Assembly (NCBI RefSeq): GCF_052425735.1
Contig: NC_135766.1
Coordinates: 14,446,001-14,510,000 of the forward strand
Length of the DNA: 64,000 nucleotides
DNA from: Oculina patagonica
Lineage: Eukaryota
Direction of reading: 5' to 3'
The translations under genes were made by a program, and so were the position numbers. Shown here piece after piece: positions 50,029 through 50,556 of this stretch (position 1 is the first letter of the stretch; each line of letters opens with the position of its first letter). The notes under the pieces were generated by a model. It made no database searches. It worked only from the letters and a program-made list of their open reading frames with translations, and had not been told where the DNA came from.

Positions 50029-50556
50029 CTAACGAGAATCTTTTGCGATCATGGGGCAATGTTCCAAGGGTCTCCAGTTCACTGATTGTAGCACACCGAG
50101 TTCTTCTCGGAGAATGTCCAATCGTTGTACCGGCGACGAGATCGTGTCTAGAAATTGGCTATTTCTTGCAATATTGCGATCCTCCAGCTTTATGGCGATA
50201 AAAAGACAGGCCAGGATCAGCTCTCTAAATGTAGACCTTTTTCTGTTCGAAGTTTTGTTCAAGTGTCGCCAAAGTAGACTTTCCGCCAACAAAGCCGTTT
50301 CTTTCGGGTAGTCGCAGTCACACATTTCTTCCAAAAATTCCCCAGCAAATTTTAGATCGCCCAAAGACAGCGCGGGATGTTTTTCTGTAATCCTGTCCAT
50401 CCTACTCATTCGGCGCAGCAAAGAAAGAGGCAAAATGTTCTGTGTCGTCCGAATTTGTAGCGAAGAAACATTTGCAAGCATGCTTTTGGAACTTAAAACC
50501 GATTGTGATTGGCAGGGCCATAACCAATCACTGCCAACTTGGGATAGTGCTCTCAT
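50029..50556 (-). CDS. Small cyclin-box (cyclin N-terminal fold) protein
   Basis: FLEEMCDCDYPKETALLAESLLWRHL..FRELILACLFIAIKLED..ILREELGVLQSVNWR follows the cyclin-box pattern (ET..LA....DR.L..L...ACL.IA.K.EE..I...E..IL..L.W); true start uncertain. Confidence 0.75.
   Translation of the reverse strand: MRALSQVGSDWLWPCQSQSVLSSKSMLANVSSLQIRTTQNILPLSLLRRMSRMDRITEKHPALSLGDLKFAGEFLEEMCDCDYPKETALLAESLLWRHLNKTSNRKRSTFRELILACLFIAIKLEDRNIARNSQFLDTISSPVQRLDILREELGVLQSVNWRPLEHCPMIAKDSR

Follow-up and report, generated by a model that had tools for sequence, protein, structure and literature searches.

Architecture of the element

The 64-kb stretch of DNA analysed here (the window) contains a mobile unit of ~9.7 kb (43602-53269), bounded by a perfect 14-bp inverted repeat and carrying a predicted tyrosine recombinase, a single-box cyclin (here mini-cyclin) and a spliced gene for a predicted helicase (Table 1). 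The cyclin had been described from the sequence as unusual cargo of a transposon-sized recombinase element, and the 9.7-kb unit with its 14-bp inverted ends bears this out. Related elements elsewhere in the genome have the end motif in common and are mostly sited in microsatellites; most of the true ends found adjoin (ATC)n, (AAT)n, (CTT)n or (CCTT)n repeats, and the recombinase-side end in the window has a short ATC-type core only. Inside 43602-53269 there is no reverse transcriptase frame and no further long sense ORF, and no capsid gene was seen, by which a provirus is ruled out. A structure resembling the long palindrome is also found in the C1 and C2 copies of the element in the genome. 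Adjoining the helicase-side end is a reverse transcriptase fragment from a non-LTR retrotransposon (42544-43350, minus strand) with an (AAT)n tail.

Table 1. Features of the element and their positions in the window
Feature	Position	Strand	Remarks
Element end, helicase side	43602..43615	+	14-bp inverted repeat adjoining an (ATT)n microsatellite
Long palindrome	44141..44583	.	221-nt arms, 92% complementary; centre reads N; ~153-bp repeat units
Tandem 159-bp repeats	45528..46119	.	3.6 copies, upstream of helicase; candidate origin or regulatory array
SF3/D5-type helicase gene (predicted), spliced	46710..49568	+	Convergent with cyclin; exons 46710-47806, 48108-48225, 48318-49568
Mini-cyclin CDS	50029..50400	-	123 aa from Met53; 126 aa from Met50 at 50409
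Spacer, recombinase stop to cyclin	50410..50552	-	Predicted internal Pol II promoter
Pyrimidine initiator, TCT-like	50429-50422	-	Spacer motif; predicted start 50427
TATA-like heptamer	50459-50453	-	Spacer motif
CCAAT	50512-50508	-	Spacer motif
Reverse CCAAT	50528-50524	-	Spacer motif
ATGA stop/start overlap	50553..50556	-	Sublineage-specific, judged incidental
Predicted tyrosine recombinase, 570 aa	50553..52265	-	Motif conservation, Atlas lead, Myb
Element end, recombinase side	53256..53269	-	Matching 14-bp inverted repeat and short core common to other copies

The predicted recombinase and helicase

The 570-aa ORF displays the residue pattern R301/K329/H396/R399/H426/Y435 and an N-terminal C2H2-like finger, both seen in the sequence. 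The catalytic positions are each kept in 22-24 of 24 recombinase homologs, with R301 and the HPTR-type motif containing R399 in all 24 and Y435 in 23. A weak Atlas lead connects the protein to Phage_integrase, a label borne by 15% of that cluster's members, and Pfam gave no integrase match for it. At the C-terminus Pfam recognizes a Myb domain, and the PDB sequence search returned Myb-type matches only, the closest being TRF1/TRF2. Named homologs come from Porites, Oculina and Nematostella, and the Nematostella protein (P0325) is 66% identical; on these homologs and the host CDK2 exon described below, the element's host is likely a stony coral. From these features we predict that the 570-aa protein is a tyrosine recombinase. 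The Myb domain (50590-50730, minus strand), with its resemblance to telomere-binding TRF1/TRF2, is a candidate microsatellite-targeting domain.

According to the available text of PMC8869645, which cites Kapitonov and Jurka (2012, Repbase Reports), CryptonV elements are cnidarian tyrosine-recombinase DNA transposons, some of which lie in microsatellites. Our element resembles them in its YR-pattern protein with an R-H-R-Y tetrad, the 66% identical Nematostella homolog, the microsatellite flanks and the missing reverse transcriptase. Going by this description we would class it as CryptonV-like, and the Repbase CryptonV entries may already note a helicase. The original Cryptons are without terminal inverted repeats, and the available text describing them (PMC3212892) does not mention 'helicase', 'cyclin' or 'Myb'; in contrast, the present element has 14-bp inverted ends, a predicted SF3-type helicase and a cyclin.

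The helicase gene is interrupted by two introns with GT..AG borders, the second of which is visible as a joint in sequencing run X4. An intronless relative of the helicase matches DUF5906 (E=5e-5) and Parvo_NS1 (E=0.004), both under the cut-off, and the Atlas DUF5906/D5 clusters match the same relative with a score of 0.97; on these matches the convergent gene is predicted to encode an SF3-type helicase. A PDB sequence search with the helicase found nothing. PHROGs yielded no useful match. A PCNA-box-like C-terminal motif occurs in 10 of 18 distinct helicase tails compared to 17 of 1131 background frames, using a regular expression for the consensus that was fixed after inspection of the sequences. 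In the window this tail lies at 49520-49568 (plus strand), preceded by a basic stretch, and it is also present in L027-L052 and L076-L083, among helicases 25-70% identical. Intron positions vary by helicase type: the window type has two around the Walker motifs, the type at C2:36.33 Mb has others, and the helicase at C7:9.69 Mb has no intron across the helicase core. An IMG/VR scan, which was pattern-based and of limited sensitivity, yielded no relatives of the cyclin or the recombinase.

A single cyclin box under purifying selection

The 175-codon ORF (50556-50029, minus strand) matches Pfam Cyclin_N over residues 58-162 (E=1.2e-8; 35.2 bits against a cut-off of 23). There is no second cyclin fold, as no Cyclin_C match was obtained and the ORF stops ~13 residues past the box; the 42 listed members of its protein cluster are 93-141 aa long. 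No intron is needed to read the ORF, and contigs from two sequencing runs (X1 and X2) span 50003-50847 gap-free. In a PDB family-profile search, human cyclin E1 was the top match (E=3e-7), followed by three herpesviral cyclin sequences (E=5e-4 to 7e-3), with no cyclin A, B or D at E<=0.1. The sequence-only reading had proposed a single intronless divergent cyclin fold, comparable in concept to viral cyclins, and with Cyclin_N over the cut-off, no Cyclin_C and herpesviral cyclins as next-best matches this proposal holds.

Searching 1.84 billion representatives at E<=0.001 returned 54 proteins: 46 are cellular cyclins, 7 belong to the family (whole members or fragments) and 1 is repetitive. When 45 of the cellular matches were aligned, most showed the cyclin E box pattern, and the two named clusters are both cyclin E. 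A structure model reached pLDDT 87 and pTM 0.81 with an alignment that held the 45 cellular cyclins, which bias the model; with the family-only alignment, pLDDT was 51. In a Foldseek search with the former model, cyclin E1 took places 1-13 (TM 0.70-0.79) and was matched at its N-terminal box, with no match at E<=0.001; TFIIB and Rb cyclin folds rank below cyclin E there and are ruled out. In a tree that included few other cyclin classes, the mini-cyclins form one family on a branch of 5.3 substitutions, and no donor is named. Among host cyclin exons, the family profile scored 12.5 bits against a frame that we take to be cyclin-H-like and 12.0 bits against one presumed cyclin-E-like. Judged by its best matches, the mini-cyclin is likely derived from cyclin E.

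A dN/dS check among copies, which the sequence-only reading had suggested, gave 0.22-0.37 for same-clade pairs with dS >0.1 and 0.14 for L073-L075. Between clades the ratio was 0.08-0.13 where computable, and four close pairs gave 0.47-1.27 on 6-11 changes. The cyclin is under purifying selection across related elements. Alignment A1 omits P0012, P0016 and P0017, which are truncated or chimeric. An artefact or chance ORF is ruled out by the selection and the Pfam score, and a host cyclin pseudogene by the finding that the gene is intact in many lineages, always beside a recombinase or helicase.

The ATGA overlap and the start of the cyclin gene

On the minus strand, bases 50556-50553 read ATGA, the TGA of which ends the 570-aa ORF (52265-50553) and the ATG of which starts the 175-codon ORF that runs to 50029. 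This overlap of the recombinase stop with the cyclin start, already seen in the sequence, had been interpreted as termination-reinitiation coupling, in which reinitiation at the overlapping ATG would tie the output of a 175-aa cyclin to that of the recombinase. The overlap and the open 52-codon extension are intact in all four young copies (the window, L002, L003 and L004), contigs bridge the recombinase and cyclin genes, and a transposon precedent exists in SART1 (available text of PMC10275272). The proteins of these four share 96-97% identity with that of the window copy and so represent one event, and the older genome copy L007 is missing the ATG and has no overlap. For comparison with metagenomes, 13 loci were retrieved, 11 clear relatives and 2 weak 32-residue matches, and after setting aside 2 loci without upstream DNA, 9 were usable. 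None of these 9 loci holding upstream DNA (~7 distinct) has the overlap; in 8 of them the stretch from the recombinase end to the cyclin Met is interrupted by in-frame stops, and the ninth (L081) is open with a different peptide. In the near clade, one inserted base converts the recombinase TAG stop to ATGA. SART1 and caliciviruses share the overlapping stop/start layout, seen here in one sublineage only, but their reinitiation needs specific RNA structures (PMC10275272, available text), and the overlap here is not conserved. TGGGA, the TURBS motif, is absent from the 120 nt before the recombinase stop. Furthermore, the Pfam match starts at residue 58, outside the extension. Reinitiation is largely refuted as a mechanism of the family, and we regard it as very improbable; the coupling proposed earlier does not stand, and we judge the ATGA overlap to be incidental and limited to one young sublineage.

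The start that is conserved lies downstream. Every one of the 15 aligned proteins, with identity down to 58%, has Met53, in an alignment that took 14 of the 17 matches found, and the start context has A at -3 in all 13 loci and G at +4 in 12. Among the 42 cluster members listed, 39 start at Met50/53, 2 at another upstream Met and 1 downstream, and none is 175 aa long; since these starts come from gene callers, it is the DNA comparison that carries weight. The homologs begin at a downstream Met, which, together with the unconserved overlap, was the outcome that the sequence-only reading had named as speaking against it. The conserved start is Met50/Met53, giving a product of 123-126 aa, and residues 1-49 are no conserved coding extension. 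The gene model is thereby corrected from 175 aa to 123-126 aa, with a start of its own. In one relative, L076 (about 700-870), the recombinase stop lies six codons downstream, in frame with the cyclin, and the recombinase end appears labile.

The spacer as a candidate promoter

The spacer between the recombinase stop and the cyclin holds a set of promoter-like motifs at fixed spacing. A YYCTTTYY motif is found 27-32 nt before Met53 in 13 loci, in 12 of the 13 loci, across both clades, the distance from the first base of a TATA-like heptamer to the TCT-like C is exactly 32 nt, and CCAAT and/or its reverse lies 85-101 nt before the initiator C in all 13, these motifs having been defined after inspecting the same sequences and the TATA match being loose. 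YYCTTTYY is the TCT initiator consensus; in the animals studied, few promoters are of the TCT type, and most of these have no TATA box (PMC5580651, available text). No out-of-frame ATG lies between the predicted start site and the cyclin in any of the 13 loci, and the TATA-like plus initiator pattern has a single occurrence in the 64-kb window, at the spacer. When the window spacer was compared with the distant clade, where synonymous sites are saturated, it was beaten by 5 of 500 and 0 of 500 shuffles, whereas the 3' flank control was matched by 141 of 500 and 166 of 500 (simple doublet shuffle). Motifs held at fixed spacing despite saturated synonymous sites point to an internal promoter, and we consider it likely that this candidate is the cyclin's own.

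The sequencing runs offer a second view of the spacer. The X1 and X2 contigs cross 50003-50847 unspliced and with 2 differences, bearing in mind that the four runs are contigs of guessed RNA origin and that a contig is not a transcript. X1 and X2 give no cover at 52422-53162, and most of the window's helicase is likewise uncovered in them. Contigs from X1, X2 and X3 all stop at 50003, but X1 cover continues beyond, and neither feature is taken as a transcript boundary. The spacer contains no AATAAA, and as the contigs cross it, RNA of the recombinase may extend through the cyclin. An alternative reading of the pyrimidine run is that it serves as a splice-acceptor tract; the cyclin would then have no promoter of its own, and splicing or the addition of a leader shortly before Met50/53 would produce its mRNA out of recombinase read-through RNA. 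This would account for the conserved pyrimidine run with a nearby AG before the ATG and for the spacer without AATAAA, and the element's helicase does have introns. However, the X1 and X2 contigs show the spacer unspliced, without any joint ending in it, the first AG past the tract is a weak GAG or AAG, and the CCAAT and TATA-like motifs at a fixed distance would be left unexplained. We thus find the splicing route improbable and continue with the internal promoter.

Predicted CDK interface and proposed function

Cyclin-CDK is a textbook pair, and the conserved cyclin Lys and Glu contact the CDK. The corresponding Lys71 and Glu100 are each present in 11 of 12 family rows and in all 45 cellular rows. 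In contrast, all 12 family rows have other residues in place of Met15, Arg16 and Trp22 of the cellular RxL patch (MRAIL..W), and the C-terminal degron tail of cyclin E is missing from the mini-cyclin. In cellular cyclins the RxL patch binds substrates and p21/p27, and the Fbw7 degron of cyclin E lies in its C-terminal tail (PMC6170502, available text). On the kinase side, the host CDK2 exon is ~90% identical to CDK2 of Acropora and Porites, and a search with a longer CDK pattern found no match. A complex of mini-cyclin residues 1-117 with CDK2 (P0127, 97% identical to the host first exon), predicted with alignments unused, scored a median of 0.32 against a mark of 0.34, with controls at 0.00, and speaks neither for nor against the pairing. 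Reading from the residues that are kept, we expect that the mini-cyclin probably binds CDK1/2 via the Lys and Glu. With neither RxL patch nor C-terminal degron, it would, on balance, activate the kinase and escape p21/p27 and Fbw7.

Known cyclins give parallels for parts of this arrangement. Cyclin E (CCNE1; PDB 1W98) is the best sequence and fold match and shares the N-terminal box, the HP motif before helix 1 and the Lys and Glu, but identity is ~25%, it has ~400 aa compared to 123, and it carries two folds, a degron tail and an MRAIL-type RxL patch; unlike cyclin E, the mini-cyclin is intronless and mobile. The gammaherpesviral v-cyclins (PDB 1G3N, 1BU2 and 1JOW) and the walleye retroviral cyclins are likewise cyclins captured by a genetic parasite. 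Herpesviral cyclins are D-type-derived. These herpesviral and retroviral cyclins are 229-319 aa long, compared to one E-like box in an element with no capsid gene seen. A Foldseek viral library gave weak fold matches to viral cyclins, and giant viruses have single-domain cyclins of 142-180 aa. The partner of herpesviral cyclins is CDK6, and Spy1/RINGO and p25, which like the mini-cyclin have a single cyclin box, activate CDKs and bypass T-loop phosphorylation (PMC6170502, available text); they differ in being host genes and have no sequence match to the mini-cyclin by Pfam, PDB profile or the 1.84 billion representatives.

The loss of the second fold and of the RxL patch fits an inhibitor role equally well. 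The mini-cyclin could be a dominant-negative decoy that occupies the cyclin face of CDK1/2 without switching the kinase on or docking its substrates, and holds a cell state favouring excision, replication or integration. Such a role would suit a protein that has retained its CDK-contact residues but has neither the RxL patch nor a second fold, and cyclin E itself inhibits CDK5 (PMC6170502, available text). Against this, single-box Spy1 activates CDK2, viral cyclins are activators (CDK6 complex; both from the available text of PMC6170502), and a helicase with a PCNA-box-like tail would profit from S phase. We consider a decoy unlikely and proceed with the mini-cyclin as an activator.

By analogy with Cryptons, for which a circle model has been put forward (PMC3212892, available text), a circle would form when the recombinase connects both inverted ends around a short core, and it would reinsert at microsatellites, perhaps guided by the TRF-like Myb domain. 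Copying of this circle would fall to the helicase together with host enzymes, including PCNA. Meanwhile the cyclin would be made from the spacer promoter, starting near 50427, and as a stable, inhibitor-blind CDK2 activator would bring about S-phase conditions that benefit the element, as with papillomaviruses, whose E1 helicase is CDK2-regulated (PMC5618027, available text). That the recombinase excises a circle at the 14-bp ends, which the helicase then copies with host PCNA and polymerases, S-phase entry raising the copy number, has in our estimate an even chance of being right. The whole reading, in which a conserved 123-126-residue E-like cyclin in a 9.7-kb element, likely with its own promoter, would activate host CDK2 for S phase, is put forward tentatively, at slightly less than even. 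A bolder version would have a capsid-less family of animal DNA transposons act like a genome-resident small DNA tumour virus, with circle excision, an SF3 helicase working on host PCNA and the smallest natural cyclin-E-type CDK2 activator, a single box without inhibitor or degradation sites, forcing coral cells into S phase; this we think rather unlikely, if conceivable.

Cell-cycle drivers are known cargo of viruses. In the literature listings and abstract openings searched, outside Repbase Reports and most subscription journals, we found neither a DNA transposon with a cyclin as cargo nor a CryptonV that bears a helicase, and the available texts of PMC4455052, PMC5753468, PMC10871703 and PMC8502044 describe neither. 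The cyclin cargo is real and apparently undescribed. If our reading is true, a selected mini-cyclin carried in multiple lineages on a recombinase-helicase element would make the boundary between transposons and small DNA viruses less sharp, and would offer a natural test of whether one cyclin-E box suffices to activate CDK2 free of p21/p27 and Fbw7. As a speculation, it would also be a candidate mobile driver of proliferation in corals.

Variation among the related elements

The genome contains 74 recombinase matches, and a cyclin is present at only 4 of the 30 best recombinase loci, so it is dispensable; C4 holds three further cyclin loci, which are degraded. Where present, the cyclin moves with the recombinase arm, with 97% nucleotide identity compared to 66-71% for swapped helicase arms. 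This bears on another conceivable role, in which the mini-cyclin would no longer control the general cell cycle and would act as an adaptor for proteins or the replication origin of the element (it might recruit a kinase to the helicase, for instance) or work free of a CDK. Helicase arms are exchanged and the cyclin stays with its recombinase arm, which speaks against a helicase partner in tight co-evolution with it, and we hold the adaptor or CDK-free role to be quite unlikely, again preferring the activation of CDK2.

The arm swapping itself joins recombinase arms 97-99% identical to helicase arms ~66-71% identical or less, and the switch point lies between the convergent genes, at ~49938 in the window. 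It is seen between the window (43602-53269) and C1:25370.7-25380.3 kb and C2:6928.8-6938.3 kb, between C2:36.33 Mb and C7:9.69 Mb, and also at C11:16.80 Mb, C11:17.98 Mb and C1:7.25 Mb. A cyclin-less family occurs as tandem or clustered copies at C11:16.80-16.81 Mb, C4:42.43-42.47 Mb and C4:61.66-61.67 Mb, an arrangement compatible with multimeric circles or local duplication. Finally, at C10:16369-16374 kb, a 63-bp tandem array upstream of a recombinase has grown to >4 kb.
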